Below are positions 1,008-17,135 of a DNA stretch of 64,000 nt, piece by piece. The DNA comes from Polyangiales bacterium (GTDB lineage: Bacteria; Myxococcota_A; Polyangia; Polyangiales; Polyangiaceae). The position numbers and the translations under genes are program-made. The stretch is taken from contig JBBRLQ010000004.1 of the NCBI GenBank assembly GCA_038231275.1, positions 256,001 through 320,000 on the forward strand. The letters are read 5' to 3'. Numbering within the stretch: position 1 is the first letter of the stretch; every line of letters begins with the position of its first letter. The notes below the pieces were generated by a model, which did no database searches, was not told the DNA's origin, and worked only from the letters and a program-made list of their open reading frames with translations.

Positions 1008-3107
1008 TCAGCGCTTGAAGAGGCCGAACAGCTTCCCGAGCACCCGTCCGAGCTTCGACGTCGGCAGCTGCCACGTGGGCTCCATCTGCGGCCCGTCGTA
1101 CTTGCCGAGCTCCCTCAGGATCTCTTCGACGGGCTTGGTGCGATCGAGCTTCAGCGGCAGCGCGCGTCCGGTGCGGGCGTTTCGCGCCTCGATCGCCATG
1201 ACGCAGTGGTCGTCGAAGCTGATCCGAACCGTGACCCGTCCCTTCTCCCACAGCGACGGATCTTCGACCACGGCCGAGCAGAGGTACTCGTTGCGACTGG
1301 CGTCCGTCGACTCGCCCTGGAAGATGGGGAGGCTCACGCTGCCGAGGATGTCGGCGTCGAGGGTGACGACGCGCTCGGTTGGGATTCGGCTATTTTTCTC
1401 GACGATCGGGACGAAGCGAAGGCCGGTCACGCCGTAGCCGATGCTCATGGGGAGGATGTCGAGGAGCGTCGGGCCCGAACCCGAGCCGATCTCGGCGGCG
1501 AGGAGCGCGGCGCCGAGGGCAACGGCTTCGTCGGGGTTGATGCGCTTGCTCGGCCTTCGTTTGAAGAGATCGGCGACCGCCTTCTGCACGGCAGGGATGC
1601 GCGTCGTTCCGCCGACCAGGAGCACATCGTCCACGTCCGTCTCGGGCGACAGGCCTGCCGACTGCATGACCTCCTTCGCGATCGTCAGCGTGCGCTCGAT
1701 GAGCGGGCGCATGAGCTGCTCGAACTGCTGGCGCGTGATCTCCACCGAGAGCGCGCGCCGCGGCTCGCGCGTGAACTCCGGCAGCTCGACGACGTACTCG
1801 GTCTGCACCGACAGCGCGCGCTTGGCGAGCTCCGCCGCCCCACGAAGCCGCGCGATCTGCTGCGGCTCCGGATCCACGTCGATCCCCGCCTCGCGCTGGA
1901 ACTCCGCCAAGATGTGCGACGCCAGGAGATCGTCGAAATCGGAGCCACCGACGAAGTTGTCGCCGCCGGTCGCGAGCACCTCGAACTCGTCGTCGCCGAG
2001 GTTCACGATCGAAAAATCGAACGTGCCGCCGCCGAAGTCCCACACCGCCACGCGCGTCTTCTTCCCCTTTTGCTTGTGGCCGTAAGCCACGGCGGCCGCG
2101 GTCGGCTCGTTCACGATGCGGTGGACGGTGAGGTTCGCGTCCTTGGCCGCGCGCCGGACCGCCTCGCGCTGCACTTCCGAGAAATACGCGGGGACGGTGA
2201 TGACGGCGGCCTCGACCTTGGTCTTCAGGTACGCCTCGGCGGCGTCGCGGACCTCTTCGAGCACGCGCGCGGCGATCGCGTCCATGCTGATGACCTTGTC
2301 GTCGATGCGGACCCCGAAGCGCTGCCCCTCTGCCTGCGCGAGCGGATACGCGAAGTGCTTCTGAAGCTCGGCGGCGACCTCGTCACGGTATGTGCGGCCG
2401 ACGAGGCGCTTCGATCCATAGACGGTGCGCAGCGGGTAGAGGATCTGGCGATCGGCGGCGCGCTGGCCGACGTGCCATTTGCCGTCGGGATCGAACGTGA
2501 TCATCGACGGAATGGTGTTCGTCCCGGTACGGCCCGGGATGATCTGCGGTCGCCCGTCGACGACGTACGAGGCGCACGTGTTCGTGGTGCCGAGATCGAT
2601 CCCGATGATCAGCTTCGCGGCGGCAACCGCGAGCGGCTCGATCTGAGGCTCTACTTCGTCTTCCTCGGGCGGCGCGTGGACCGAGACCGCGCGCGGCGGG
2701 GCATCTGCACGCGCCTTGGCCTGGAGGTGCTCGCCGGGCATCGGCGGCGGCCCGCCGATCTTGCCCGGCAAAGGCGGCGGCCTCGCCGGATCCGACGCCT
2801 TGAGCGAAGCGACCACGACGGGATCGATCCCGAGCGCGAGGAACGAAATCCCCATTCGCCCGGCGCCGGCGTCGACGCGCATGACTTGCGCGAGACCGGC
2901 GGCGAGCTTCTCTCCTGCGTCGTCGAGCAGATCGAACCGGATCTCGTCACCGACCTTGGCGACCGCTTCGGTCATGACGAGCGCGCCGGTGCTGCTCACG
3001 TCACGAAGGCGGTCGGTTTGCGTGTCCCCCTTGCCGGCCACGTACCATTGGATTCGAACGTACGACGCGAGCCGCGGGTGACTTCGGCGATCGGTGCTTC
3101 GGGACAA
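1008..3107 (-). CDS. PilZ domain-Hsp70 (DnaK-like) fusion protein
   Basis: N-terminal RSHPR and DVSSTG (PilZ RxxxR/DxSxxG); Pro-rich linker; Hsp70 motifs IDLGTT, TVPAYF, NEPTAAA, DFGGGTFD, VGGTTRIP, NPDEAVA; TTG start with GGAGG upstream. Confidence 0.92.
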   Translation of the reverse strand: MSRSTDRRSHPRLASYVRIQWYVAGKGDTQTDRLRDVSSTGALVMTEAVAKVGDEIRFDLLDDAGEKLAAGLAQVMRVDAGAGRMGISFLALGIDPVVVASLKASDPARPPPLPGKIGGPPPMPGEHLQAKARADAPPRAVSVHAPPEEDEVEPQIEPLAVAAAKLIIGIDLGTTNTCASYVVDGRPQIIPGRTGTNTIPSMITFDPDGKWHVGQRAADRQILYPLRTVYGSKRLVGRTYRDEVAAELQKHFAYPLAQAEGQRFGVRIDDKVISMDAIAARVLEEVRDAAEAYLKTKVEAAVITVPAYFSEVQREAVRRAAKDANLTVHRIVNEPTAAAVAYGHKQKGKKTRVAVWDFGGGTFDFSIVNLGDDEFEVLATGGDNFVGGSDFDDLLASHILAEFQREAGIDVDPEPQQIARLRGAAELAKRALSVQTEYVVELPEFTREPRRALSVEITRQQFEQLMRPLIERTLTIAKEVMQSAGLSPETDVDDVLLVGGTTRIPAVQKAVADLFKRRPSKRINPDEAVALGAALLAAEIGSGSGPTLLDILPMSIGYGVTGLRFVPIVEKNSRIPTERVVTLDADILGSVSLPIFQGESTDASRNEYLCSAVVEDPSLWEKGRVTVRISFDDHCVMAIEARNARTGRALPLKLDRTKPVEEILRELGKYDGPQMEPTWQLPTSKLGRVLGKLFGLFKR

Positions 3108-3163
3108 GGAGTTCCTCCGTGCGAGACGGGACGAGAAGCGGCGGTCTCGCCTAAACTATCAGA

Positions 3164-5344
3164 TCAGGGGCGGCCTGGCGCGGCGGTGAAGGCGAAGGTC
3201 GTGTTCGGCGCGAGGGCGGCGCGCAACGTGACGCGACGACCGTGGATCTCCGTCGCGCCGCATGACGCGCACGTGAAGCTCTTGAGCGCGTCGCCGAACT
3301 CGAGCGTGAGATCGGTCACTGCGAACGCGCCGGTCTTGAGCGAGCCCGCGTAGCCGCCCGCTGCCGTGTAGGTCGCGTCGAGCTGCACGCCCTCGCGCGC
3401 GCGCCAGAACGCGCCGAGGTCGCCCATCGTCAGGTTCGTGCGGACGCCGCGCTTGGTGGTCGCCTCGAGGAATTTGTCGGCGACGTGGAGCTTGTTCTTC
3501 AGGTTGTCGGGCCCGACGCCGCGCCCATAGGACGGGTGGAGCAGCGCGGTGGTGAACGCAAAATTGTCGGCGTTGCGGAGCACAGCGTACGACCACAGCG
3601 AGATGAACTTCGCGGCGTTGTTGGCCTGCATCTCGACGCGTGTGTCCACCCCCTCCACGACGGTGCCGAGCCCGTCCTCGATCGCGATGGGGAATGTGTA
3701 GAGTGCACGTTGATGGAACGTGTCGCGGCTGAGGCCGGTGCGCGCGAGGGAGATCGGTAGGTTGAATTTGTAGTCGCCGACGGCGAAGCTCGAGTCCGCG
3801 ACAAAGCCCTCCGACTCGAGCACGTCGTAGAGCGACGGGTGGACGTAGAGGTAGGGGCTCCGCCACGCGATCGGCTTCGCGCCAGTCTCCTTCTCGATGA
3901 GCTCGCTCGAGACGCGAATTTCGCCGCACAGGCTCGTCGCGCGCTCCGGCACGTACGTGGCGTAGGTCTCCTGGCAGGTGCCCTGCGGCTGCTTGCTGAA
4001 CGTGTCGGCGTGACGGACCGAGTGCGCGCCGAGCGGGCACATCCCCAGGTCGCAGAGGGAGTGGAGCGTGTCGGGCGTGTAGTAGCCGGATACATAGTCC
4101 GTGGTGATCAGGAACGTGCCGCGCGCGCCGTGAGCGCGCTCGAGCTCGGCGACCTGTTGCGCGCCAGGCTCTCCCCACGTGCCGTTTTTTTGGGCGTCGG
4201 GGGCGTCGACGTCGTGCGTGAGCAGCATCACCGAGTCGTCGGGACCGGGCGCGGGGTGCTTGAGGACGAGGTGACCTCGGGCCCCTTCGCGCATCGCCTC
4301 GCGCAAGAAGAGCCCGATGAGATCGCCGGAGGGCTCGAAGCAGTTCACGTAGCAGCGGTAGTGGCCGAAGGTGTGGAGATCGTGGCCGAGCGCGTAGACG
4401 GCCCCCTGCCCCACCTGCCGCCGCGTGACCATGGCGCCGGCGGGGGCGCCCCTTACGATCGCGTGGGCGACGACGGTGGTGCTGGCGCTCGACGGCTCCA
4501 TCACGTAGCCCTCAACCGGGTTCTTCGCCTGATCGTTCGAGAGGGGGACGCTGCGCTCTTCGGGGCTGTCGAAGGCGCGGGCAGCGACGGCGAGCGCTCC
4601 GTCGAACGCCAGCGCGTCGATGTCGAGCCGCCGTTCGCTGCGCGTGATCCCCGCGATGGCGAGGAGGTTCGTGCCGGCGTCGACGACGGGCTTGGTCAGG
4701 ACCACGACGCCGCCGCCGGTCGCGAACGCCTCGAGCGCGCTCCGCTGGGCGTCGTCGATCACGCTACCGAGGAGGTACCCGGGGACGACGACGAGCGCGT
4801 ACGAGGAGAGGCCCGCGAACGCGCCGCTCCAATCGGTGCGCGGCGCTGGGCGATCGTAGGGGACGCCCCACTGCTCGAGGACCGACGCGATGGTGTCGAC
4901 CTCCTCCGGCCCATCGTCCCAGATGTAGTTCGGCACGAGGAGAAGCGCGCGCGGGTGCGTGTCGACCGCCGCGACATCGTCGATGGCGCCGTTGCAGTCG
5001 TTGTCGACGCCGTCCAAGACCTCGGGAGCCGGGCCCGGCGCCATGCACACACGCGCGCCTCCCTGGCATGCGGCGTGCGCGGATCCGCACGCAGGCGCGG
5101 CGCCCACGCACGCGTTCGCGTCGACAGGCATGAGGACGTCGACGAGGCCGTCGCAGTCGTTGTCGATGCCGTCGCATCGCGTCTCGACGTCTTCTCGATC
5201 GGGAGAGTCGGCCGCGAGCGCGCACGGCGCGGCGGGAGGCGTCGTCGCCGGCGTCGCTCCGGCGCCCGGGTTGACGGTGCACGACGCCGAGACCGCGACC
5301 ACGCCGAGGAGCGCCGCTGCGCGACCACGCGACAGGAGGGCCAT
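3164..5344 (-). CDS. Lipoprotein with Cys/Asp repeats and CE4-type polysaccharide deacetylase domain (catalytic motifs intact)
   Basis: Start re-assigned to ATG 5344 (MALLSR...VSASC lipobox); repeats DGIDNDCDG and DGVDNDCNG; CE4-like motifs THDVD, HSVRH, RSPYL, LLHP. Confidence 0.8.
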   Translation of the reverse strand: MALLSRGRAAALLGVVAVSASCTVNPGAGATPATTPPAAPCALAADSPDREDVETRCDGIDNDCDGLVDVLMPVDANACVGAAPACGSAHAACQGGARVCMAPGPAPEVLDGVDNDCNGAIDDVAAVDTHPRALLLVPNYIWDDGPEEVDTIASVLEQWGVPYDRPAPRTDWSGAFAGLSSYALVVVPGYLLGSVIDDAQRSALEAFATGGGVVVLTKPVVDAGTNLLAIAGITRSERRLDIDALAFDGALAVAARAFDSPEERSVPLSNDQAKNPVEGYVMEPSSASTTVVAHAIVRGAPAGAMVTRRQVGQGAVYALGHDLHTFGHYRCYVNCFEPSGDLIGLFLREAMREGARGHLVLKHPAPGPDDSVMLLTHDVDAPDAQKNGTWGEPGAQQVAELERAHGARGTFLITTDYVSGYYTPDTLHSLCDLGMCPLGAHSVRHADTFSKQPQGTCQETYATYVPERATSLCGEIRVSSELIEKETGAKPIAWRSPYLYVHPSLYDVLESEGFVADSSFAVGDYKFNLPISLARTGLSRDTFHQRALYTFPIAIEDGLGTVVEGVDTRVEMQANNAAKFISLWSYAVLRNADNFAFTTALLHPSYGRGVGPDNLKNKLHVADKFLEATTKRGVRTNLTMGDLGAFWRAREGVQLDATYTAAGGYAGSLKTGAFAVTDLTLEFGDALKSFTCASCGATEIHGRRVTLRAALAPNTTFAFTAAPGRP

Positions 5345-5391
5345 TGGAACACGATAGCAGGCGCCCCGCGCGCGTGGTGTAGCGTAGCGGA
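5345..5391. promoter_or_regulatory. Compact bidirectional promoter region with probable leaderless -10 boxes
   Basis: TAGCGT (5380-5385, +) and TGcTATCGT (5351-5356, -) each lie exactly 6 nt upstream of an ATG; no Shine-Dalgarno. Confidence 0.55.
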
Positions 5392-7563
5392 ATGGTCCGC
5401 CGCGCCGCGCTCGTCCTCGCGCTCGCCGTGGCGTGCACGGGCACGAACGCCCCGCGATCGACCGTCCCCACCACGCCCGCCGCGCCGAAGGTTGCCGCAC
5501 CGTCTCCCACCACGCCCGCGCCCGATCCGCTCACGGTGCGCGACGGCGATCGCATGGTCGAGGTCGCCTGCAACGGACTCGATGACGACGACGACGGCCT
5601 CGTCGACGTGCTCGTCCCCTCCTCCGTCAACGCGTGCCGCACGGATCGTCCGGGGCCGTGCGGCACGGGGCACGCGGCGTGCGTCGCCGGTCTTCGCGCG
5701 TGCATGACGCCGCCGCCGATGCCCGAGGTTCGTGACGGGATCGACAACGACTGCAACGGCGTCGTGGACGACGTGCGGTCCGAGCCGCAGCATCCCCGCG
5801 CGCTCGTCGTCGCGCCGCGCTACGCGTGGACGGACGCGGCGCCCGACGTCGCCAACGTGACCGCGGCGCTCGCCCAGGCCGGAATTCCCTTCGAGAAGCA
5901 GAGCGCCGGCACCGAGTGGGACGCTGCGCTCGCGACGCTCGACGGGTACTCGCTCGCCGTCGTCCCCGGCTACCTCATCGGCGCGACGATCTCCAAGACG
6001 GCGCGGGCCGCGCTCGAGCGCTTCGTCACGCGGGGCGGCGTCTTGGTCGTGTGGAAGCCGCTGGGCAAGCCGGAGCAAATGCAGGCGTGGGATCTCTGCG
6101 GCCTCGCGAGCGGCGTGCGGCGTCGCGACGTTACCGAGCTGCGCGTCGAGGGGGCGTCGGCGCTGACGGTGGATCTCGATCGACCGGAGGAGAGGACGCT
6201 GCGCATCAACGAGAAGCCCGGGCCGAATGGCGTCGAGGTGTGGGCATTCGAGCCGCGTCCGGGAACCGAGGTCCTGCTCCGTGCATACGCGGGCGACAAG
6301 GCGGTGGGGGCCGCGGTGACGCGACGCGCGCTCGGCCGAGGCGCCGTGTACGCGATCGGGCACGACCTCGCGACGTTCGACGCCCCTCGGTGCTACGTGA
6401 ACTGCTTCGAGCCGGCGGGCGACGTGATGCGAATGGCGCTCGAGGGGGTGTTCCGTGAGAGCGCCGCGGGCCACGTCGTCCTCGCGCACACCGCGCCCGG
6501 CGAAGCGTCGTCGGTGCTGCTGGTCACGCACGATCTCGACGCACCCGACGCGCAGAACGCAGGCGAATGGGGGGACCCTGGCGCGATCCAGGCGGCGCAC
6601 GTTCTCCGAGGCCACGGCGCGCGGGCGACCTTCAACGTGACGACCGACGCCCGCGCCGGGACCTTCAACGCCGAGACGCTGAAGCAGCTCTGCGCGCTGG
6701 GCATGTGCCCCCTCGGCGCGCGTGGGGTCGGGCGACCCTCGACCTTCGCGACGCTCCCGATGGGGACATGCAACGAGACGCGCGCGACGTACGGCGCCGC
6801 AGCAACGCTCTGCGGCGAGGTCCGCGTCTCCCTGCAGCTCCTCGCCGAGGTCACGGGCGAACGGCCACGCGTGTGGCGCTCCCCCTTCCTCGCGATCCAT
6901 CCGAAGCAGTACGACGTTCTCGCGCAAGCAGGCGTCCTCTACGACTCGGGACACGCCGTTGGTGACCTGCCGCACAACCTGCCGCTCGATCTCGCGGCGG
7001 TCGGGGTGCACCAGGACCGGTTCCATCACAGGCCCATCCTCGAATTTCCGATCGCGCTCCAGGACGGGCTCGACGTCGTCGAGGAGGGCAAGCGCCGCCA
7101 CCTCGACCTGGGCGCGTCGAACGAGCACATGTTCGCCTCGCGTTGGGACTACGTGCTCTTGGCGAACGCCGAGAACCGCGCGGTCACCACGCTGTCGTTG
7201 AGGCCGTCGCGCGGGGGAGACGCAGGCGACGACGCGATGAGGGCCAAGATGACGGCGCTCGATCGCATCCTCACGCGCGCCGCGTCGACCGGCGCGGCCG
7301 TCGTCTCGATGGATCGCATGGGAGATTTCTGGCGCGCGCGCCTCGACAGCAGGATCGACGCCACGTGGGAGGGCGCCGCCTACAAGGGGTCGATCCTCGC
7401 GGGAAAGGCCACCGCGCCGGGCGTGACGTTGGAGTTCGGCGACGAGATCGCCGCGTTCTCGTGCCCGGAGTGCCGGGGTGACGCGCGCGTCGTCGGCAAG
7501 CGCGTCGTCCTCCCGCCCCTCGAGGCGGGCCGACGCGTCGAGTTCACGGCACGGACGCGGTAG
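5392..7563 (+). CDS. Lipoprotein, full-length paralog of the 3164-5344 deacetylase with degenerate active site
   Basis: Lipobox LAVAC; DGIDNDCNG repeat; shared blocks RCYVNCFEP, THDLDAPDAQ, LGMCPLG, WRSPFL; HSVRH is replaced by RGVGR and LLHP by SLRP. Confidence 0.8.
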   Translation: MVRRAALVLALAVACTGTNAPRSTVPTTPAAPKVAAPSPTTPAPDPLTVRDGDRMVEVACNGLDDDDDGLVDVLVPSSVNACRTDRPGPCGTGHAACVAGLRACMTPPPMPEVRDGIDNDCNGVVDDVRSEPQHPRALVVAPRYAWTDAAPDVANVTAALAQAGIPFEKQSAGTEWDAALATLDGYSLAVVPGYLIGATISKTARAALERFVTRGGVLVVWKPLGKPEQMQAWDLCGLASGVRRRDVTELRVEGASALTVDLDRPEERTLRINEKPGPNGVEVWAFEPRPGTEVLLRAYAGDKAVGAAVTRRALGRGAVYAIGHDLATFDAPRCYVNCFEPAGDVMRMALEGVFRESAAGHVVLAHTAPGEASSVLLVTHDLDAPDAQNAGEWGDPGAIQAAHVLRGHGARATFNVTTDARAGTFNAETLKQLCALGMCPLGARGVGRPSTFATLPMGTCNETRATYGAAATLCGEVRVSLQLLAEVTGERPRVWRSPFLAIHPKQYDVLAQAGVLYDSGHAVGDLPHNLPLDLAAVGVHQDRFHHRPILEFPIALQDGLDVVEEGKRRHLDLGASNEHMFASRWDYVLLANAENRAVTTLSLRPSRGGDAGDDAMRAKMTALDRILTRAASTGAAVVSMDRMGDFWRARLDSRIDATWEGAAYKGSILAGKATAPGVTLEFGDEIAAFSCPECRGDARVVGKRVVLPPLEAGRRVEFTARTR

Positions 7564-8806: not shown

Positions 8807-11800
8807 CGTACGGTCCGGAGCATCGAGCGGCGCGCCGCGTCGCGGACCCCGGAGTCTGGATCGCTCAGGAGCTGGTTCAGGCGCGCGCGCACCGCTGCGT
8901 CGTCTACCGACGCGAGTACCGAGACGGCGGCGGTCCGCACGTCCGGCGATGGATCGGCGAGCGCAGGGGCGACGTGCACATGAAAGCCTGGCGCGGCGAG
9001 CGCGCCGAGCGCGACCACCGTGACGCGCCGTGACGCGGGATCGGCGCCCGACGTGAGGTGCTGCGCCAGGCGCGCCGATGCCGCCGACGCGCGCGGCTCT
9101 GCGCGTAGGGCGATCCGCGTCTCCAGCGTCGCGTGACCCCACGCGCGTCCGAACGCCGCGAGCCCCTTGGCGTCCGCCTTCCCGACGAGCGACGCGAGCG
9201 CGGCGGCGCGCACGGTGGGCGACGCGTCCTCCAGCATCGCCTCGAGCACACCCATGGCGGCGTCCGTCAGCGGGCCGCTCGCCCGATCGATCGCGGCGGC
9301 CGCGCGCGCGCGCACCGCCGCCGACGGGTCTCGCCGCAGCGGCGCGGTCCGGACCAGCGCGTCGTTCGTCCATGCCATCGCGTCGAGCACCGCCGCGCGC
9401 ACGTCCTCGCTGGGATCCTGCGCCATCTCGTCGACCAGCGCGGCCGCGTCGGGGGTCGCCAGCGCCCCGACCGCGCGCACCGTCGCCGCACGAACCGACG
9501 CTGCCGTCGAACGCGCCAGCTCGCGCAGGAGCGGCAGTGTCTGCGGATGCGCCATCCGCCCCAGCACGCGGACCGCCGGGGTCAGGAGCTCCGGCACGTC
9601 GACGCCCATCATCGAGTCGACGAACGGGCCCGGATCGTCGCGGTGCATCTCCGCGAGGGCGTGCTCCACGACCTCTTGCACCTCGGGCGCCCCGGCGCCG
9701 AGCCGCCTCGCGAGCGCCACCGCGACGTCTGGCTCCCTCCGCTCCACGAGCGCGCGCGCAGCGAGGACGGCGACCTCGGGGTTCGGATCGGCCACCGCGC
9801 GCGCGAGCGCCTTGCGCGCGAGGGCCTCATCGACCCGCGTGCGGAGCGCCTCGGCCGCGTGGAGCCTCACCGCGTCGCTCGGATCGCCCGCGAGCGCGAT
9901 CGCGAGGGCGTCCAGGCCGCGATCGGTCCGGAGGCGTCGCAACGCGGCGACCGCGACCTTGCGTGACTCGACCTCGAGGCTCGTCCGAAGCACATGCTCG
10001 TACTGCTCCGCGAGCGCCGCGGCGTTGCGCGGCGACTCGTTACCTGCGCCGGGATCCTCGATGCGGAGCATCGCGAAGAACGCTGCCCGCACAGGAGGAT
10101 CCTCACGCTCCAAAAATGCGAGGGTCTCCGCGAGGACGCCGTCGACCGCGATGGCGTCGAGCACACGGGCCAGCGAGGCTTCGGTCCCGACGAGCGCGGA
10201 GGCGACGAGGTGCGCCGCGCGGGATGCGCGCGCGCCGAGCTCGCGCACGCGCGCATCTACCGTCTCCTTGCCCATGCGCGCGAGCGCCACCAACGCGCGG
10301 TTTCGCACGAAGGCGTCGGGATCCGTCACGCGCGCCGCGAGGATGTCGAGCACGCGTTCGTCCCTCTCGCCGCGCGCGAGCGCGTTCACCACCGCGGCGC
10401 GGACGCGACCGTCGGGATCCTCGGTGACGCCGCGGAGGGCCGTGACGGCGGCCGGCGCAGAGATCTTCCCAAGCGCACCCGCCGCGGACGCGCGCAGCGA
10501 CGCGTCCTCGGACACCAAGAAGCGCGCGAGCGTCGGCACCGCGCGAGGATCCCCTGTCTTGCCGAGGGTCCACGTGATGCCGAGACGGACGTCGATCGAC
10601 GCGCTCCTCTCCAGCTCGTCGAGGCGCGCGAAGAGCAGCTCCTGCGCGCCGCGTGAGAGCGCCTCGGCGATGCGATCGCGCACTTCGGGGAGCGCGCCGC
10701 CGAGCGCGCGCAAGAGGCCCTCGAACGCCTCCGTGCTCGTCGCCGATCCGAGCGCCGTCACCGACGCCATTCGGACCTCGATGGAAGCGTCGGTGAGGCA
10801 CCCGACGAGCGCCTGCACGGTCCCCTCCCCCGCCCGACCGCCCAGGCCGGTGACCGCCCGCAGGCGCACGGTGTCGCTGGGGTCGGTCGACGCGCGGACG
10901 AGCAGGCCGTCGCCCGGCGCGCCGTCGATACGCGAGGCCAAGGTCACGACGTGCATCCGCGTAGGCACGCTGCCGTTCTCGTACGCGGCAAGGAGCGCGT
11001 CGGTGAACGGCGCCAGATCGCCGGCGGAGAGATTCGTCAGCGCTTCCACGGCCGCCTCCCTCACCGGCTCCTCGTCGTCGCGCAGACGTCCCACGAGCGC
11101 AGACGCCGACGCCGCGTCCGCGAGCTTCCCGAGCGCCTCGCAGACCGCCGCGCGCACCGGCCACGATTCGTCGAGGGCCGCGCCGAGGAGCAGCGGTCCG
11201 ACGCGCGCCGCGCGCAGCTCCCCGCACGCCCTCGCGGCCACCGCCCGGACCTCGAACCGTGCATGATGCAGGTACGACGCGACGCTGTCGACGAGGCCCA
11301 CGCGCCCGAGCTCCAGCAGGGCCGCCTCCGCGCGTTGCCGGACGTCGTGCGCCTCCGCCGTGAGCTCCCCGATGACCCGATCGAGGTACCCCACGCGCTC
11401 CAGCGCGAGCCCCGCGCGCCTCCGCACCTCCGCGTTCGGATCGCGCAGCGCCGCTTCGAGGGGCGACGTGTCGTGGATCCGCATCGTCTCGAACGCCTCG
11501 AGGGCGCGCAGGCGCGTCCCGTAGTCCGGGTCGGCGAGCGCGGCGATGAGCACGTCGATCGCGCGCTCCCCTTCGATCCGCGCGACCGCCGCCGCGGCGT
11601 GCGCGCGCACTTGCGGGGCTGGATCGCGGAGCGTCGCGCGCACGAGCGGCTGGAGGGCACGCCCATCGCCGATGGCCTCGAGCGCCTCGGCGGCAGCCAT
11701 TCGCAGCAAATCGTCGCGATCGTAGAGGCGCGCGACGAGATCGTCCGTCGCGCGGGCGTCGCCGATGCGGCCTAGAACACGCGCAGCCCACACGCGCGCC

Positions 11801-12438
11801 GGCGGGTGCGACGGAGCCACGAGCAACTCGAGGAGGGCCGGCACAGCCAGCGCACCGAACGCGACGAGCGCCTCCGCGACATTGCGCGACGAGCGCTCGT
11901 CGTTCCTCTCCAGCTCGCTCACGAGGAGCGGGATCGCGCTCGCGTCGCGCAAGCGCGCCAGCGCCGCCGCCGCCGCCACTTTGACCGACGCGTCGTCCTC
12001 GTGACGATCGCGGAGCGCGGCGACCAGCGCGGCGACCGCCGACGACGCCGCCGCGAGGCCGAGGATCTCCGCCGCGTGCGTGCGCTCGCTCCATTTGGAC
12101 GCCTCGCGAACGCGCACGGAGTACACCTCGACCAGCCCGAGCTCCGAGAAGAGCCGGCCACCCCACGCGCGCGCGGCGAGGTCGTCGCCGCGGAGGAGCA
12201 TGAGCACGGCGCGCTCGAGCGTGAGCACGTCGAAGCGTTCTTTGAGCGTCGCCATGAGCGGACCGATCGGCGCATCCCGAGCGTCCCCCAGCTGCCGCTG
12301 CGCCTCGGTCACCGCCGCGAGAGCGCGTCGCGCCCACGCGCGCCGGAGCACCTCGCGTATCAGCACCCACACCGCGGGCACGACCGTCGCGACCACGAGG
12401 GCGACGGTCATGACGAGCGCCCAAGGCAGCGTGCTCAC
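8803..12438 (-). CDS. Membrane-anchored HEAT-repeat protein (1211 aa)
   Basis: N-terminal TM helix followed by many PBS/HEAT repeats (LRDPxxxVRxxAAxALG); GTGA overlap with the upstream stop. Confidence 0.9.
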   Translation of the reverse strand: MSTLPWALVMTVALVVATVVPAVWVLIREVLRRAWARRALAAVTEAQRQLGDARDAPIGPLMATLKERFDVLTLERAVLMLLRGDDLAARAWGGRLFSELGLVEVYSVRVREASKWSERTHAAEILGLAAASSAVAALVAALRDRHEDDASVKVAAAAALARLRDASAIPLLVSELERNDERSSRNVAEALVAFGALAVPALLELLVAPSHPPARVWAARVLGRIGDARATDDLVARLYDRDDLLRMAAAEALEAIGDGRALQPLVRATLRDPAPQVRAHAAAAVARIEGERAIDVLIAALADPDYGTRLRALEAFETMRIHDTSPLEAALRDPNAEVRRRAGLALERVGYLDRVIGELTAEAHDVRQRAEAALLELGRVGLVDSVASYLHHARFEVRAVAARACGELRAARVGPLLLGAALDESWPVRAAVCEALGKLADAASASALVGRLRDDEEPVREAAVEALTNLSAGDLAPFTDALLAAYENGSVPTRMHVVTLASRIDGAPGDGLLVRASTDPSDTVRLRAVTGLGGRAGEGTVQALVGCLTDASIEVRMASVTALGSATSTEAFEGLLRALGGALPEVRDRIAEALSRGAQELLFARLDELERSASIDVRLGITWTLGKTGDPRAVPTLARFLVSEDASLRASAAGALGKISAPAAVTALRGVTEDPDGRVRAAVVNALARGERDERVLDILAARVTDPDAFVRNRALVALARMGKETVDARVRELGARASRAAHLVASALVGTEASLARVLDAIAVDGVLAETLAFLEREDPPVRAAFFAMLRIEDPGAGNESPRNAAALAEQYEHVLRTSLEVESRKVAVAALRRLRTDRGLDALAIALAGDPSDAVRLHAAEALRTRVDEALARKALARAVADPNPEVAVLAARALVERREPDVAVALARRLGAGAPEVQEVVEHALAEMHRDDPGPFVDSMMGVDVPELLTPAVRVLGRMAHPQTLPLLRELARSTAASVRAATVRAVGALATPDAAALVDEMAQDPSEDVRAAVLDAMAWTNDALVRTAPLRRDPSAAVRARAAAAIDRASGPLTDAAMGVLEAMLEDASPTVRAAALASLVGKADAKGLAAFGRAWGHATLETRIALRAEPRASAASARLAQHLTSGADPASRRVTVVALGALAAPGFHVHVAPALADPSPDVRTAAVSVLASVDDAAVRARLNQLLSDPDSGVRDAARRSMLRTVR

Positions 12439-12809
12439 CCGCCCCCGAGGAGCTTCGTGATCGTCTGGACGACGAGCGCAGGATCGGCCGGCTTGTTCAA
12501 GAACTCGCTCGCGCCGGACTGGAATGCCCAGAAGCGATCGGCCGCCTCGGTCTTGCCGGTCAGGATGATGATCGGGATCTTCGGCGCGATGCGCTTGATC
12601 GCTCGACAGGCCTGGTAGCCGTTCAGCTCCGGCATGGTCACGTCGAGGACCACGATGTCCGGCGGGTCGCGCTCGACCGCCGCGATCGCGAGCTCACCGT
12701 CGCGCGCGATCGTGGTGCGATGGCCGAGGGCTTTGAGGCGCACCTCGAGCGGCTCGAGGCCCTTCGGGTGGTCGTCCACGAGGAGCACGTGCGCCGATTT
12801 CACGCTCAT
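12435..12809 (-). CDS. Single-domain response regulator (CheY-like receiver)
   Basis: LLVDD, VLDVTMP, ILTG and FLNKP all intact; ATG 12809 overlaps the kinase stop (ATGA). Confidence 0.92.
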   Translation of the reverse strand: MSVKSAHVLLVDDHPKGLEPLEVRLKALGHRTTIARDGELAIAAVERDPPDIVVLDVTMPELNGYQACRAIKRIAPKIPIIILTGKTEAADRFWAFQSGASEFLNKPADPALVVQTITKLLGGG

Positions 12810-14230
12810 CGGCTGCCCCTGGAAGAGGGCGGCGCGCCTGCGCGCTCGGAGATGGGCCCGAGATCGATGACGGGAACGGCGCCGTGCGGGACGATGACGA
12901 CGGCGGCGCACTTCGCCAGCGCTTCCACCACCGAGTCCCGCCGCAGATCGAAGCGCCACCCCGTCCCGTCGTCCCTCTTGTGCAGGGCGTCGACGATTCG
13001 CTGCGCCGCCGCCGCGTCGTCGACGAGGACGAAGCTCCGACCTTCGCGGCTGCGCATGTCGGTCGGTAGCGTGACGACGACCGACGCGCCGGCACCAGGC
13101 GCGTCCTCCACGCGCACGCTTCCTTTGTGCTCGGCCATGATCTCGCGGACGACGGCCAGCCCGATGCCGCTCCCCGGCACGTCGCGATCACGCTCGAGGC
13201 GGGCGCCGCGCACGAAGACGCGCTCGCGCTCCGCGAGGGGGATTCCCGGTCCGGTGTCCTCCACGACGAGCTCGACGTTGCGCCGCGCGTCCGTGCCCTG
13301 ATCGCCGCGCCCTTCGGCGGCGCGGAGGTGCACCGCGACGTGACCGTCCACCGGCGCGAATTTCAAGGCGTTGACGACGAGGTTCGTCACGACCTGCTTG
13401 ATCTTGAGGGGATCGCACCACGCGGTGAGCCCGTCGTCGACGTCGAGCGTCACGGCGATCCGCTTCTGCTCGGCGACGTTGTCGAAGAGGCCGACTGTGC
13501 CACGCACGAGCTCGCCGAGGTTGCACAAAATGCGTCGTGCGGGCCCGCGCGCTCTGCCGTCTCCGCGCGAGGGCGGCGCGTCGGTCGTGGCGCGCACCAC
13601 TCCGGAGAATCGCTCGAGCAGGCTCACGAGATCGTCCGTGGCCTGGAGGATCTGCGCGACGTGCACGCGTTGCTCGTCCTCGAGCGGGCCGACGATCTCG
13701 TCGCGCAAGTTGGCGGCGTAGCCCACGATGATGCCGCAGAGCACACGCGCGTCGTGGGCCATCGACCGCGTCTCGGTGCCGACCGTGTCGAGGCGCGCGC
13801 CGGTCGCCCGCAGACGATCTTCCAGATCGCGCGCGCGCGCCGCCACCCCTGCGGCGTCGCGCCCGCGATCGAGCGCCGCCTGCGTTGCGACGAACAGCTC
13901 GCTGCCCTCGTTCGAAGGAGTCGCGATCGCCGCGGGCCCGAGCGCCGAGACGCGCGACGCGACGACACCGGCGGCCACCGACACCACGAGCGGCAGGCGC
14001 GCCGTCCGCTCGTCGCGCCGGAGCGCCGCCGACAGCGCGAGGAAGCGCTCGGGCTCGTCGCCGGCATCCAGAACGACGGCGTCGATCCCCGGCGCGCTCA
14101 GCGTCGCGAGATCGTCCACGTTGACGACGCAGCTCTCCGCGCTCGCGCCCGCGGCACGCAAGGACTCTGCGCAGCGCTCGGCGGCGATCGCGTCGATCCC
14201 CACGACCACCAGGAGCCCGTCGTCCGTCAT
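12806..14230 (-). CDS. Cytoplasmic sensor histidine kinase with degenerate receiver-like N-terminus
   Basis: H-box MAHDARVL, N-box NLVVNALKF, G1 EDTGPGI, G2 GSGIGL; no TM segment; ATG 14230 overlaps the GT2 stop (ATGA). Confidence 0.88.
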   Translation of the reverse strand: MTDDGLLVVVGIDAIAAERCAESLRAAGASAESCVVNVDDLATLSAPGIDAVVLDAGDEPERFLALSAALRRDERTARLPLVVSVAAGVVASRVSALGPAAIATPSNEGSELFVATQAALDRGRDAAGVAARARDLEDRLRATGARLDTVGTETRSMAHDARVLCGIIVGYAANLRDEIVGPLEDEQRVHVAQILQATDDLVSLLERFSGVVRATTDAPPSRGDGRARGPARRILCNLGELVRGTVGLFDNVAEQKRIAVTLDVDDGLTAWCDPLKIKQVVTNLVVNALKFAPVDGHVAVHLRAAEGRGDQGTDARRNVELVVEDTGPGIPLAERERVFVRGARLERDRDVPGSGIGLAVVREIMAEHKGSVRVEDAPGAGASVVVTLPTDMRSREGRSFVLVDDAAAAQRIVDALHKRDDGTGWRFDLRRDSVVEALAKCAAVVIVPHGAVPVIDLGPISERAGAPPSSRGSR

Positions 14231-15747
14231 CCTGTCGGTCTCGGCGCGAAGCCCTTCCGCGCGAATTTGTCCCAGCCCTGCTTCCCCTTCATGAAGTCCC
14301 AGAGCCCGCGGAGCTGCCACCCCATCAGATACTGCCGATACCCCAAGTTCGACAAAAATCCGGTGAACAAGAGGATGAGCACGTCACTCAAGCGTTCGTA
14401 TTTGAAGAGCGAGAGCCCCGCCACCGCCGCCCGGGTGCCGCGCTCGGTCGTGATGCAGAGGAGGACCGACAGCGTGCTCAAGAGGAGGTTGATGCCCATC
14501 GCGAGGGCCAGGAACGTCAGGAGCGCTTTCACGGACAGGATGCCCAGCGCCAACGTCAGGAGGAATACGACGTACCCGGCGCACTCGAGCACGGGCGCCA
14601 GCGCCTCGAAGAGGAGCTGGTACGGCAACGAGAAGAGCCCGACCTGCCGAAAGCGCGGGTTGAACATCATCACGCGGTGGTAGCTGAGCACCTCGAGCAG
14701 CCCGCGGTACCAGCGCGAGCGCTGCTTGCCGATGTCGGTGTAGTTCTCGGGTGCCTCGGTCCACGCGGTCGGAAACGGGAGGATCGAAATCTTTCCAGGA
14801 AGCTTCTTGTCGAGCAGGTACCGGTGGAGGCGGACGACGATCTCCATGTCCTCGCACACCGTGTGGACGCCTTGGCCGCAATACTCGATGCCGATCTTCG
14901 ACTGCATCGTCTTGGTCAGAAATCCGCCGATCGACAGGACCAGATCGCGTCGCATCAAGGCGAACACGCCCGAAAGAACGAGCAGCGACCGCAGCGCCGC
15001 GAACGCCATGCGCCCCTGCGCGAACGAACGCATGTACTCGACGATCTGGAAGCGCCCGATCCAGGTCTTCGGCAAGCGCATCTCGACGACGCGCCCGTCT
15101 TCCACGACGGAGCCGTTGGAGATCCCGACCTGCACACCGACCGCCACGACCTCCTCGCGATCGTCGACGATCGGCCGCGCGGCGAGGAGGAGCGCGTCGG
15201 GCGTGAGGAGGCTGTCGGCGTCCATGCTCGTGACGTAGTCCCCGCGCGCGACGTTGATGCACGCGTTGAGAGCGTCGGCCTTCCCGCCGTTCTCCTTGTC
15301 GATGAGGACGAGGCGCGTGAGCCCCGCCGGGAGCGGCCCGCGCACCTCGTAGAAGCTCCGGATGGGGGCCGTCACGAGCTGCTCGTCGTATTCGAGCTCG
15401 ACGCGCACGAAGTGGAACGCGCGTAAAAGCTCCCCGACCGTTTTGTCCTTCGAGCCGTCGTTGCAGACCACGATCTCGAACGACGGATACCGCAGCCGCA
15501 GCAGCGACCGGATGCTGTCGCAGATCGTGACCTCCTCGTTGTATGCGGGGACGAGGAGCGTCACGTGCGGAAGGAAGCGATCGTGCTCACGCGCGAGCGC
15601 AGGGCGTACGTGCTCGTTCGCCAGGACGTCCCCAATCCGCCGCGCGCTCAAGAGGCTGAACACGATGTTGATGAGGAAGAACACCAGCACGTAGGCCAGG
15701 ACGAAGGCGTCCAAGGCCCATAAAATGGCTGTGACGAGCTGCACCAC
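14227..15747 (-). CDS. Processive GT2 glycosyltransferase (PgaC/IcaA-like polysaccharide synthase)
   Basis: VPAYNEE, NDGSKD, NGGKADALN, MDADS, CEDME, QRSRW (QxxRW); N- and C-terminal TM helices; start uncertain (GTG 15747 or 15744). Confidence 0.9.
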   Translation of the reverse strand: MVQLVTAILWALDAFVLAYVLVFFLINIVFSLLSARRIGDVLANEHVRPALAREHDRFLPHVTLLVPAYNEEVTICDSIRSLLRLRYPSFEIVVCNDGSKDKTVGELLRAFHFVRVELEYDEQLVTAPIRSFYEVRGPLPAGLTRLVLIDKENGGKADALNACINVARGDYVTSMDADSLLTPDALLLAARPIVDDREEVVAVGVQVGISNGSVVEDGRVVEMRLPKTWIGRFQIVEYMRSFAQGRMAFAALRSLLVLSGVFALMRRDLVLSIGGFLTKTMQSKIGIEYCGQGVHTVCEDMEIVVRLHRYLLDKKLPGKISILPFPTAWTEAPENYTDIGKQRSRWYRGLLEVLSYHRVMMFNPRFRQVGLFSLPYQLLFEALAPVLECAGYVVFLLTLALGILSVKALLTFLALAMGINLLLSTLSVLLCITTERGTRAAVAGLSLFKYERLSDVLILLFTGFLSNLGYRQYLMGWQLRGLWDFMKGKQGWDKFARKGFAPRPTG

Positions 15748-15776
15748 GAGCGGGTCTGGCTCGAGAGTAGCGTAGA

Positions 15777-17135
15777 ATGGCGAGCAAGTTGGCGATCGCG
15801 ACGAATCGGCGGGCGACGCGCCTGGTGTGGGTCCTGGCACGACTCCTCGCGATCGCTGCGATCGGTGGCGTCGTGTCTTGGCCCGCAACCGCACGCGCGT
15901 CGGACTGCGCCGCGAGCCGTTACACGGCGGGAGCGACCACGCGCGACGCCGCGATCCTCGAGGCCGGGCAGCTCGCCGCGGCGGGGCGCTACGCCGATGC
16001 GCGCGCCGCCTACCTCGACCTCCTGAGCCGCAACGAGGACGACTCCGAGGCGCTCTACGGGCTCGCGCGCGTCGACGCGTGGCAAGGATGCGCCATGCTC
16101 GCGGAGAGCGAGTACACGCGGGTCCTCGTCGCGCACCCGAGGGACGCCGACGTGCGGGCCGGCCTCGTCGACCTCTTCGTGTGGAACGATCGCTACGACG
16201 AGGCGAGCCGCATGATCGACGAGGGCCTCGCTCTCGATCCGCGCTCACCTGCGCTGCTGGCGAGGAAGGCGCGCATGCTCGCGTGGAAGGGCGAGGCGGT
16301 GGAGGCCGCGCGCATGGCCGACGAGGCGGTGAGCCTGGCGCCGGACGACGGGGATCTCGCGGCGATGCGCGCCCGCATGTTCGTGGGGGAGGCGCGCGTC
16401 GCCGGGCGGTTGGATCTCTACCCGCCGGGCTACCAGGATCTCTACGCGCTCGGCGGTCAAGTCCTCGGGCGCGTGCGGCGCTTCGAGCTGTACGGAGGAA
16501 TCCAAGCGCTCGAACGCTACGGCGGCGCGACGTCGCGCCCGGTCCTCGACGCGCGTTATCCGTTCGGACTCCTCTACCATCCCGCGCTCGGCGTCACGCT
16601 CGGCGCCGAGATCGCGCCAGGCCTCCCCGCCAACGCGATCCCCGACGTCGCGATCAAGACCTTCGCGAACGTGCCGGTCGCGCACCGGACCTCGGCGTAC
16701 CTCGCGTACTCGTTCTGGCACTTCGGCGGCGGTGAGCTCGTGAACATCCTCAACCCGTCCGTCGAGGTGACGTTGCCGCGCGACGTTCGCGTGACCGTGC
16801 GCGGGTGGCTCTCCGCGGTGACGCTCCCCCGCCCTTCGCCGCAGACGGCGGACACGAAGATCGCCGGCGCGCTGGGACCGGCCGCGGCCTGGGACGTGAC
16901 GCCGCGCGTGACGGTCGGCGCTTGGTACACCTACGGGACCGAGCTCGATCAGAACCCCGCACTCTTCCAGCTCCTGGCGTTCCGCTCGCACCAGGTGGGC
17001 ACGTTCGGGGAGGTCTTGTTCAACCGCTTTCAGGGCGTTCGGCCGCTCGTTCAGGTCGCCCGACGCGAGGCGACGTCATCGGGCGTGTCCATTTGGACGA
17101 TCTCCTTCGAGCTCGGCGCGTGGCTGCGCTGGTGA
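15777..17135 (+). CDS. TPR plus outer-membrane beta-barrel protein (YaiO/PgaA-like exporter)
   Basis: Signal peptide, TPR-like helices (ALYGLARVDAWQG, RYDEASRMIDEGLALDP), amphipathic beta strands, C-terminal aromatic residue (FELGAWLRW). Confidence 0.75.
   Translation: MASKLAIATNRRATRLVWVLARLLAIAAIGGVVSWPATARASDCAASRYTAGATTRDAAILEAGQLAAAGRYADARAAYLDLLSRNEDDSEALYGLARVDAWQGCAMLAESEYTRVLVAHPRDADVRAGLVDLFVWNDRYDEASRMIDEGLALDPRSPALLARKARMLAWKGEAVEAARMADEAVSLAPDDGDLAAMRARMFVGEARVAGRLDLYPPGYQDLYALGGQVLGRVRRFELYGGIQALERYGGATSRPVLDARYPFGLLYHPALGVTLGAEIAPGLPANAIPDVAIKTFANVPVAHRTSAYLAYSFWHFGGGELVNILNPSVEVTLPRDVRVTVRGWLSAVTLPRPSPQTADTKIAGALGPAAAWDVTPRVTVGAWYTYGTELDQNPALFQLLAFRSHQVGTFGEVLFNRFQGVRPLVQVARREATSSGVSIWTISFELGAWLRW

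Follow-up and report, generated by a model that had tools for sequence, protein, structure and literature searches.

A candidate synthase-dependent polysaccharide locus with a membrane-anchored HEAT-repeat protein and a two-component pair in a Polyangiales bacterium

Results

A 64,000-nucleotide stretch of the genome of a Polyangiales bacterium (assembly GCA_038231275.1, contig JBBRLQ010000004.1, positions 256,001 to 320,000; here referred to as the window) carries eight genes within positions 3164 to 17135. We predict, with a probability of about 0.68, that these genes form a synthase-dependent polysaccharide machine of an uncharacterized and widely distributed type, which would make, trim, and export a surface polymer. 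A gene for a HEAT-repeat protein with a transmembrane anchor and a stand-alone receiver gene lie directly beside a gene for a PgaC-like family 2 glycosyltransferase (GT2), and a gene for a tetratricopeptide repeat (TPR) protein with a predicted beta-barrel lies near. Since this arrangement recurs in dozens of loci, it is far beyond chance. An initial annotation of this DNA had proposed that the locus is laid out like a synthase-dependent exopolysaccharide system, and the GT2 motifs, the periplasmic TPR region with an outer membrane barrel, and the lipoproteins resembling glycosidases and carbohydrate esterase family 4 (CE4) enzymes all agree with that proposal. For the comparison, we used the definition of such systems reportedly given by Whitney and Howell in 2013.

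Organization of the locus

The G+C content of the window is about 70%, and the gene frames were singled out among its open reading frames by third-position G+C contents of 0.82 to 0.90; they match the frames of the initial annotation. Five minus-strand genes (i.e., those for the GT2, a histidine kinase, the receiver, the HEAT protein, and a lipoprotein) are chained by four start/stop overlaps of 4 nucleotides (nt). Read directly in the minus-strand sequence, these overlaps are ATGA between the GT2 stop and the kinase start (14227 to 14230), ATGA between kinase and receiver (12806 to 12809), GTGA between receiver and HEAT protein (12435 to 12438), and ATGA between HEAT protein and lipoprotein (8803 to 8806), exactly where they had been annotated. 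The most likely starts of the GT2 gene (GTG at 15747) and of the TPR-barrel gene (ATG at 15777) leave a divergent spacer of 29 nt, in agreement with the approximately 30 nt given before. Two CE4 lipoproteins had been placed at the far end of the locus. Both are present (CE4a, 3164 to 5344, minus strand; CE4b, 5392 to 7563, plus strand), although as a divergent pair with a 47-nt spacer and with a Pfam match in CE4a alone, below the curated cutoff. CE4b converges on the lipoprotein gene, and the 3' ends of the two overlap by 20 nt (7544 to 7563).

The functional labels first given to the GT2, kinase, receiver, HEAT, and TPR proteins all correspond to Pfam matches (i.e., GT2; HATPase_c and, weakly, HisKA; Response_reg; HEAT_2 over 13 stretches; and TPR). 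The labels "glycosidase-like" and "beta-barrel" have no Pfam match, yet the predicted structures agree with them.

The synthase

The GT2 (14227 to 15747, minus strand; 506 amino acids [aa]) matched the Pfam families Glycos_transf_2 (E = 1.2e-23), Glyco_tranf_2_3, and, weakly, Chitin_synth_2. By hydropathy, its catalytic domain is flanked by an N-terminal hydrophobic segment (residues 1 to 39) and C-terminal transmembrane segments (residues 378 to 434). Across 41 aligned sequences drawn from several phyla, D97, D101, K151, D158, D176xD178, Q234xxE237Y238, E299D300, and Q342R343xR345W346 were invariant, and the basic C-terminal tail was also kept (W492 is invariant; R497, G499, and F500 are nearly so). 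These motifs are those of processive, membrane-embedded GT2 synthases; the protein combines the D/DxD/ED/Q(R/Q)xRW motifs of an inner membrane processive GT2 with transmembrane segments of its own. The QxxEY/ED/QRxRW pattern is one that we take to be typical of the chitin-synthase/NodC/PgaC group.

The best NCBIfam match was PgaC_IcaA (TIGR03937). When the GT2 profile was aligned to Escherichia coli synthases with hhalign, PgaC scored highest (99.7%; E = 3.9e-27), followed by YaiP (98.4%; E = 8.6e-15) and NfrB (59%; E = 9.1e-5; 77 columns). A sequence search against solved structures returned generic matches to the GT2 N-terminal part alone.

The exporter candidate

The outer membrane exporter candidate (15777 to 17135, plus strand; 452 aa) has a signal peptide, TPRs at residues 56 to 199, and a predicted 14-strand beta-barrel at residues 204 to 451. 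Its structural model (32-row alignment; pLDDT, 87.8) retrieved BcsC as the top Foldseek match (E = 1.2e-10), together with PgaA (4y25; E = 9.2e-8), PelBC (E = 7.2e-7), and AlgE (E = 1.1e-6; rank 11). The TM-scores to polysaccharide exporters were only about 0.4, and the barrel was better fitted by OmpG (TM-score of 0.72 on the target), its best fits overall being OmpG, FadL, and CymA. On the predicted structure, a TPR scaffold is joined to an outer membrane porin. This architecture would be that of polysaccharide exporters, with a barrel that the model assigns to the 14-strand size class.

The barrel had initially been expected to be PgaA/YaiO-like. With its 14 strands, its best fit to OmpG, FadL, and CymA, and no sequence similarity to PgaA, it does not clearly answer that description; moreover, Pfam YaiO (PF19413; cutoff, 23.9 bits) had no match at an E value of ≤0.01 in the TPR-barrel protein or anywhere in the genome. 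A barrel-only profile aligned well with nine barrels from distant loci that pair a HEAT gene with a GT2 gene (96.6%; E = 6.3e-10), less well with two Pfam-YaiO-positive acidobacterial proteins (28%; E = 6e-4), and at 0.2% with E. coli YaiO. The 97.7% match of the full-length TPR-barrel profile is largely due to the TPR part.

The lipoproteins

The lipoprotein at the end of the gene chain (7544 to 8806, minus strand; 420 aa; lipobox, LLLAC) had no Pfam or NCBIfam match. Its model (20-row alignment; pLDDT, 91.1; pTM, 0.90) has a predicted (alpha/alpha)6-barrel fold like that of glycoside hydrolases (GHs). The top Foldseek match was dextran dextrinase (9ju0; E = 1.8e-8), and the methylmannose-polysaccharide hydrolase MmpH (7qsj; TM-score of 0.73 on the target), GH63 YgjK, GH94, and GH8 CelA were also retrieved; all of the best matches are glycoside hydrolases or phosphorylases of the (alpha/alpha)6 fold. 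Seven acidic residues (D66, D165, E202, D206, D262, E339, and E403) are invariant in this family, whose 236 detectable homologues are all annotated as "hypothetical protein"; none of the 120 that were listed carries a Pfam domain.

CE4a (726 aa; lipobox, VSASC) matched Pfam MopE (E = 5.9e-8) and Polysacc_deac_1 (E = 2e-4), and CE4b (723 aa; lipobox, LAVAC) gave weak Pfam matches only. The two proteins are 45% identical and have a common architecture, consisting of a MopE-type Cys motif, a GH42M/ThuA-like domain (weak match), and a CE4-like domain. The motifs of CE4 enzymes (i.e., D-D, HxxxH, RxPY, and LxH) are all present in CE4a, as THDVDAP, HSVRH, WRSPY, and LLHPS. At the level of fold and motifs, the lipoprotein and CE4a would provide the enzymes that modify or cleave the polymer in systems of this kind. 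In CE4b, ARGVGR replaces AHSVxH and LRPS replaces LHPS, with the loss of both HxxxH histidines and of the LxH histidine, residues that CE4a and most orthologues retain; only one of the three is missing from the sister-species orthologue. Eleven aligned members of the CE4 family keep THD[VIL]D and WRSP together with the greater part of HSVxH and LxHPS; the first histidine persists in 10 of them, the second in 8, and that of LxH in 9. With its three conserved histidines replaced, CE4b is probably noncatalytic, and its sequence looks like the outcome of a stepwise decay to a pseudoenzyme after a second copy was gained. The notion of two CE4 enzymes would therefore apply to CE4a, whose motifs are intact, and not to CE4b, which lacks the three catalytic or metal-binding histidines.

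The CE4 family profile also aligned with a Pfam-positive deacetylase from a Sphingomonadales locus with a HEAT-GT2 pair (hhalign, 99.7%; E = 1.2e-26). An apparent fusion of the lipoprotein with a CE4-like protein in a genome from another family of the order (G034) was rejected, as BLASTP found the CE4 part alone in the over-extended 1,043-aa frame; the lipoprotein-like match lies in another frame.

Comparison with characterized systems

The locus resembles the Bcs (BcsABC-Z), alginate (Alg8/44/K/E/L), and Pel systems in having a synthase, a periplasmic TPR scaffold, an outer membrane barrel, and a periplasmic glycosidase or lyase; BcsZ (GH8) and AlgL are alpha/alpha-toroid enzymes. Those three systems are gated by cyclic di-GMP (c-di-GMP) via PilZ or PelD domains, whereas the locus has no c-di-GMP domain: a Pfam search of the eight proteins found no PilZ, GGDEF, MshEN, or GIL domain, and none of the receptors that sit on or beside other synthases (i.e., PilZ, PelD, PgaCD, and MshEN) is encoded there.

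The PgaABCD/IcaADBC systems share with the locus an inner membrane GT2 (PgaC being the nearest characterized relative), a small-operon logic, a periplasmic deacetylase and hydrolase, and, in predicted architecture, an outer membrane exporter composed of TPRs and a beta-barrel. The locus might accordingly be a divergent pga/ica operon that makes poly-beta-1,6-N-acetylglucosamine (PNAG), with CE4a and the lipoprotein in the roles of the PgaB deacetylase and hydrolase and the TPR-barrel protein as the PgaA analogue. The PgaC_IcaA match, the hhalign ranking of PgaC, the combination of deacetylase-like and glycosidase-like enzymes with a TPR-barrel, and the presence of PgaA among the top Foldseek matches would all fit such an operon, which we nevertheless regard as quite improbable. 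The synthase scored 101.9 bits against PgaC_IcaA, far under the equivalog cutoff of 422.3 bits, and is not an equivalog. The chain contains no small PgaD/IcaD gene; in place of PgaD there is a transmembrane HEAT protein, whose N terminus aligned with PgaD at 0.1%. The deacetylase-like and hydrolase-like functions are carried by separate lipoproteins of other families (each profile aligned with PgaB at 0.1%), and the predicted (alpha/alpha)6 fold of the latter is unlike that of the C-terminal hydrolase domain of PgaB. The barrel is predicted to have 14 strands rather than the 16 of PgaA, to which it has no sequence similarity despite the common architecture. Furthermore, the operon encodes a kinase and a receiver and no c-di-GMP element, and Chitin_synth_2 matched orthologues of the GT2 with scores of up to 38.9 bits, so that a beta-1,4 linkage is equally possible.

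Two further E. coli clusters were compared. The NfrB-NfrA-YbcH system, a recently recognized addition to the synthase-dependent systems according to Junkermeier and Hengge 2021 (PMC8669469), likewise consists of a GT2 synthase, an outer membrane protein, and a periplasmic helper. Our GT2 is marginally similar to NfrB and lacks its C-terminal MshEN c-di-GMP domain, and the barrel and the lipoprotein have no similarity to NfrA or YbcH. The yaiS-yaiP-yaiX-yaiO cluster of E. coli K-12 resembles the locus in its GT2 (YaiP), putative deacetylase, and outer membrane barrel (YaiO); it differs in having no HEAT gene and no TPRs on YaiO, and the barrel of the locus matches neither Pfam YaiO nor, at the sequence level, E. 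coli YaiO. In K-12, the genes for YaiS (putative deacetylase), YaiP (GT2), YaiX (acyltransferase), and YaiO (barrel) are co-oriented at 380069 to 384616, that for YaiX being split by IS2. This cluster looks like a small synthase-type polysaccharide operon, possibly a disabled one, and we know of no characterized function for it. With hhalign, the accessory proteins of the locus had no detectable similarity to PgaA, PgaB, PgaD, NfrA, YbcH, or E. coli YaiO. As judged from these sequence comparisons, the locus appears to be built like a Pga/Bcs-type machine, yet to stand outside the Pga, Nfr, and YaiO families as they are defined.

The two-component pair and the HEAT protein

The kinase (12806 to 14230, minus strand; 474 aa; HATPase_c, E = 1.1e-24; HisKA, E = 0.0011) appears to be cytoplasmic, as hydropathy indicated no strong transmembrane segment, and no domain was assigned to its N-terminal 150 aa or so. 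Its gene has ATGA overlaps at both ends, and the H-box (AHDAR) and the N and G boxes are legible in the sequence. The CheY-like receiver (12435 to 12809, minus strand; 124 aa; Response_reg at residues 8 to 117, E = 1.5e-25) has no output domain and retains the residues associated with phosphorylation (i.e., a DD pair, the aspartate within VLDVTMP, the threonine within ILTGK, and the lysine within NKP). The H-box, the ATP-binding boxes, and the acidic pocket, T, and K of the receiver that a two-component pair needs are thus all present.

The HEAT protein (8803 to 12438, minus strand; 1,211 aa; HEAT_2, E = 2.1e-102 over 13 stretches) begins with one transmembrane helix (residues 1 to 32), followed by the basic stretch REVLRRAWARR. 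Because a basic stretch follows the helix, the positive-inside rule places the 1,180-residue HEAT solenoid in the cytoplasm. The short HEAT partners of GT2s in other phyla align to approximately residues 1 to 425, which represent a shared core, and a transmembrane helix followed by basic residues stands at the start of 16 of the 17 HEAT partners inspected. In the lineage of the window, the protein extends for about 800 residues past this core. The receiver gene ends within about 300 nt upstream of the long HEAT gene in 28 of 28 loci; it is found in none of the eight Polyangium loci, whose HEAT protein matches only residues 1 to 450 or so (669 aa in one that was called). Apparent receiver-HEAT fusions in two loci (L068 and L041) were rejected, each being two genes in different frames.

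In a complex prediction for the GT2 and HEAT residues 1 to 430, with alignments for both, the median score was 0.60 (runs, 0.64, 0.43, and 0.60), and none of the three controls scored above 0.00; the pLDDT of the partner was at least 76, and at least 75% of the contacts were common to the runs. In the calibration of this method, 116 of 157 solved complexes reached its mark, as did 2 of 215 mismatched pairs; scores of ≤0.60 occurred in only 18 of the 157 solved complexes and in both passing mismatches. Considering the adjacency of the genes, the membrane anchor, and the predicted complex, the HEAT protein likely binds the GT2 directly. The initial proposal of the HEAT protein as a synthase partner thus draws on adjacency across phyla and the conserved N-terminal membrane anchor and, weakly, on the complex prediction. 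Alpha-solenoid proteins that bind a processive GT2 and regulate or position it are known from eukaryotes (i.e., the armadillo protein CSI1 with plant cellulose synthase, and Chs4/Skt5 with yeast chitin synthase 3); the likeness is an analogy, with no homology implied.

Several findings tell against the HEAT protein as an obligatory partner. The prediction tool rated the GT2-HEAT complex as "weak support"; the HEAT gene is not beside the GT2 gene in loci of Bacteroidales, Delongbacteria, and Fibrobacteres; and two loci (L036 and L037, around 7380 to 15500) have no HEAT match within 10 kb, while the GT2, receiver, lipoprotein, CE4, and TPR-barrel genes are kept. The C-terminal extension, moreover, would not be the sole docking site for the receiver, since a receiver occurs together with a short HEAT protein in L086 and L074. 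The HEAT protein may instead be a scaffold with another task, such as localization or the gathering of precursor enzymes, and the kinase and receiver may act on another target. HEAT repeats are generic interaction modules, and the retention of the receiver in the two loci lacking a HEAT gene would suit this alternative, as would the weak complex prediction. We consider it rather unlikely in view of the transmembrane-anchored HEAT gene directly beside the GT2 gene in at least five phylum-level groups, the lack of an output domain in the receiver, which must therefore act by protein binding, the position of the receiver gene directly upstream of the long HEAT gene in each locus that has one (28 of 28), and the 4-nt overlaps, which imply co-translation in fixed ratios. 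L036 and L037 represent natural "HEAT-less" variants of the locus.

Co-occurrence and distribution

Using the window proteins as queries, we surveyed 78 loci with a related GT2, with one genome per species. The counts by identity class leave out loci in which less than 2.5 kb of sequence follows the GT2 gene, and the loci are mutually related and not independent samples, which lessens their weight as support for our reading. Co-occurrence of the genes in other genomes, which had been set beforehand as a test that could refute the proposal, was found. The HEAT gene follows the GT2 gene in 39 of the 42 myxobacterial loci with enough flanking sequence. Among 15 loci with a GT2 at least 75% identical to that of the window, all had the HEAT, receiver, and kinase genes; 10 loci with 64 to 72% identity had the HEAT gene in 7, the receiver gene in 9, and the kinase gene in 5; and 17 loci with 56 to 63.5% identity (Polyangium and Kofleriaceae) had the HEAT gene in 17, the receiver gene in 9, and the kinase gene in none. 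Where both flanks were available, the lipoprotein and TPR-barrel genes were present in 10 of 10 loci of the first class and 7 of 7 of the second. The modifying enzymes are less constant than our reading would lead one to expect: CE4-like genes occurred in just 4 of these 10 and 4 of these 7 loci, and in the Polyangium/Kofleriaceae class the lipoprotein was found in 0 of 11, the TPR-barrel in 6 of 11, and CE4 in 0 of 11.

In the distant loci (i.e., those with a GT2 less than 50% identical), a HEAT gene adjoins the GT2 gene in 16 of 27 cases, 14 by Pfam and 2 by tblastn only. The groups recognized by Pfam are Acidobacteriota, Vicinamibacterales, Bryobacteraceae, Solibacteraceae, Thermodesulfobacteriota, Sphingomonadales, Syntrophomonadaceae, and one bin labeled Acidimicrobiia. 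Four of the remaining 11 loci (Bacteroidales, Delongbacteria, and Fibrobacteres) clearly have no HEAT gene; they carry GT2 and TPR genes followed by a gene for a very large protein, with a CE4 domain in the Delongbacteria locus. The other loci are short of flanking sequence or poorly called. In two acidobacterial loci, a gene for a protein with TPRs and Pfam YaiO (E of about 1e-41) adjoins the HEAT-GT2 pair. One Syntrophomonadaceae bin (L086, 1543 to 6879) has genes for a PAS-kinase, a receiver, a transmembrane HEAT protein, a GT2, and a GH16 protein in a row; the HEAT-GT2-phosphorelay module therefore extends to Firmicutes-type bins, there with a glucanase-type hydrolase.

Closer to the window, full-length GT2 orthologues were found in only three of 41 relatives: the sister species (G001; 88% identical), G003 (79%), and G034 (45%), a member of the same order in which the TPR-barrel, HEAT, GT2, lipoprotein-like, and CE4-like genes all lie on one strand. 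Among 301 genomes sampled across the phylum, 55 (in 34 of 209 genera) had a full-length GT2 match, all with E values of ≤1e-116; one family was positive in 23 of 23 genomes, and the window's own family, besides G000, in 0 of 23. The relatives that bear names belong to Labilithrix, Polyangiaceae, Kofleriaceae, and Polyangium; the organism is thus Labilithrix/Polyangiaceae-like and not a Myxococcus. The exopolysaccharide pathways of Myxococcus, which had served as the initial frame of reference, accordingly offer a loose comparison only.

As the carriers include myxobacteria with developmental cycles, the product may be a cell envelope or developmental wall polymer (e.g., the coat of spores or sporangioles) and not an exopolysaccharide secreted into a biofilm. 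The dedicated phosphorelay in place of c-di-GMP control and the anchoring of the modifying enzymes in the envelope as lipoproteins would be in keeping with such a role, which we hold to be doubtful: the same core is found in nondevelopmental phyla, and an exporter of the TPR-barrel type suggests that the polymer is released from the cell.

The polymer

The sugar is the weakest step of the proposal. On the basis of the likeness of the GT2 to PgaC and chitin synthases and the presence of a CE4-like enzyme, the polymer is most likely composed of a partly deacetylated N-acetylhexosamine. The initial annotation had likewise inferred a partly de-N-acetylated hexosamine polymer; that proposal comes only from the same two likenesses, and a distant relative has a GH16 enzyme instead.

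The polymer may also be something other than a hexosamine (e.g., a beta-glucan or an O-acetylated glycan), with CE4-like proteins that are O-deacetylases or carbohydrate-binding pseudoenzymes. The donor sugar of the GT2 is not assignable from sequence; the related GT2 YaiP of E. coli carries the annotation of a putative glucosyltransferase; CE4b is devoid of its catalytic histidines; and many related loci have no CE4-like genes. In L086, the gene adjoining that for the GT2 encodes GH16, a glucanase-type family. The distance of the GT2 from the PgaC_IcaA equivalogs noted above also weakens the case for a hexosamine, as does the weakness of the CE4 assignment itself: CE4a scored 21.8 bits against Polysacc_deac_1, below the curated cutoff of 23.1 bits, and CE4b did not match; sequence searches against solved structures gave nothing at an E value of ≤1 for CE4a and only 3rxz (E = 0.88) for the CE4 profile; and CE4-type enzymes can also remove O-acetyl groups. 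Set against these points are the full motif set of CE4a and the transfer of N-acetylglucosamine by each of the nearest characterized families of the GT2 (PgaC/IcaA and, by weak matches, chitin synthase and NodC). We judge a nonhexosamine polymer unlikely, although it is the most credible of the alternatives considered here.

Neighboring features

The range first annotated (1008 to 17135) includes the locus and, in addition, a gene that had gone unmentioned and is not part of the system (1008 to 3107, minus strand; 699 aa), which encodes an N-terminal PilZ domain (E = 5.6e-7) fused to a full Hsp70/DnaK-like ATPase (E = 1e-129). Its orthologues in G001 (91% identical) and in G034 (63%), which belongs to another family, lie on contigs separate from those with the polysaccharide locus, and the gene was rejected as a c-di-GMP input of the locus on this ground. 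Its absence from all 78 surveyed loci (0 of 78) carries no weight, as the 10-kb flanks are too short to reach it. The protein is possibly a c-di-GMP-responsive chaperone.

The motif GTAGCGTAG precedes the ATGs of both plus-strand genes of the locus. One copy (5379 to 5387, plus strand) is in the 47-nt divergent spacer and stops 4 nt short of the CE4b start codon; the other (15767 to 15775, plus strand) is in the 29-nt divergent spacer and stops 1 nt short of the start codon of the TPR-barrel gene. These are the only two matches in 64 kb (expected, 0.16), and none of 100 shuffles contained at least two. In the sister species, the motif is kept ahead of the CE4b orthologue and is not kept ahead of the TPR-barrel gene. 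It may serve both genes as a promoter or operator, or it may be an element for leaderless starts. Just outside the locus, the window encodes a GH35/GH42-like beta-galactosidase (18449 to 21025, minus strand; 858 aa) and a glycogen/starch-synthase-type GT5 (23985 to 25430, minus strand); we saw nothing that ties either gene to the locus.

Discussion

We propose that the inner membrane GT2 would polymerize a UDP-sugar and thread the chain across the membrane, as its motifs and topology suggest. In the periplasm, the chain would be trimmed by the (alpha/alpha)6 glycosidase-like lipoprotein and modified (i.e., deacetylated) by CE4a, activities to which their fold and motifs point, and CE4b may bind the polymer without catalysis. 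Export would then proceed through the TPR protein and its predicted 14-strand outer membrane barrel. The HEAT protein, a single-pass protein with a cytoplasmic solenoid beside the GT2, would be an obligatory partner of the synthase, as its conserved adjacency and, weakly, the complex prediction indicate. The kinase of the operon presumably phosphorylates the receiver, which would dock on the HEAT protein, plausibly at its C-terminal extension in this lineage, and switch synthesis on or off posttranslationally. Most characterized synthase-dependent systems of Gram-negative bacteria (i.e., those for cellulose, alginate, Pel, PNAG, and Nfr) are switched by c-di-GMP, and control through the receiver and the HEAT protein would replace the c-di-GMP receptors of Bcs, Pga, Alg, Pel, and Nfr.

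A bolder generalization is that loci of this kind form a class that spans phyla, in which the HEAT protein is an obligatory GT2 co-subunit, the phosphorylated receiver, bound to the HEAT protein with the 800-residue extension as its docking platform, gates polymerization in place of c-di-GMP, and the lipoprotein founds a polymer-specific glycoside hydrolase family. We advance it tentatively, since it seems to us somewhat less probable than its opposite.

No published study tying HEAT-repeat proteins to synthase-dependent, PgaC, or family 2 glycosyltransferase systems was found among the full-text matches listed, subscription journals being outside the scope of the search; the passages retrieved from PMC12475490 deal with secretins and have no bearing on the locus. 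Within the searchable literature (i.e., open full text), the system can accordingly still be called undescribed. The features that the myxobacterial version adds are the 1,211-aa HEAT protein, the kinase within the operon, the unannotated (alpha/alpha)6 lipoprotein, and the pair of MopE-CE4 proteins with one degenerate copy.

If the proposal is true, matrix production would gain a new principle of control, in which a HEAT partner and a dedicated phosphorelay act on the synthase. The proposal would also assign a function to the common block of genes for a "HEAT repeat protein," a GT2, and a "hypothetical lipoprotein" in soil myxobacteria, Acidobacteriota, and other phyla, and this block would point to an unstudied polymer and to an unannotated family of glycosidases.

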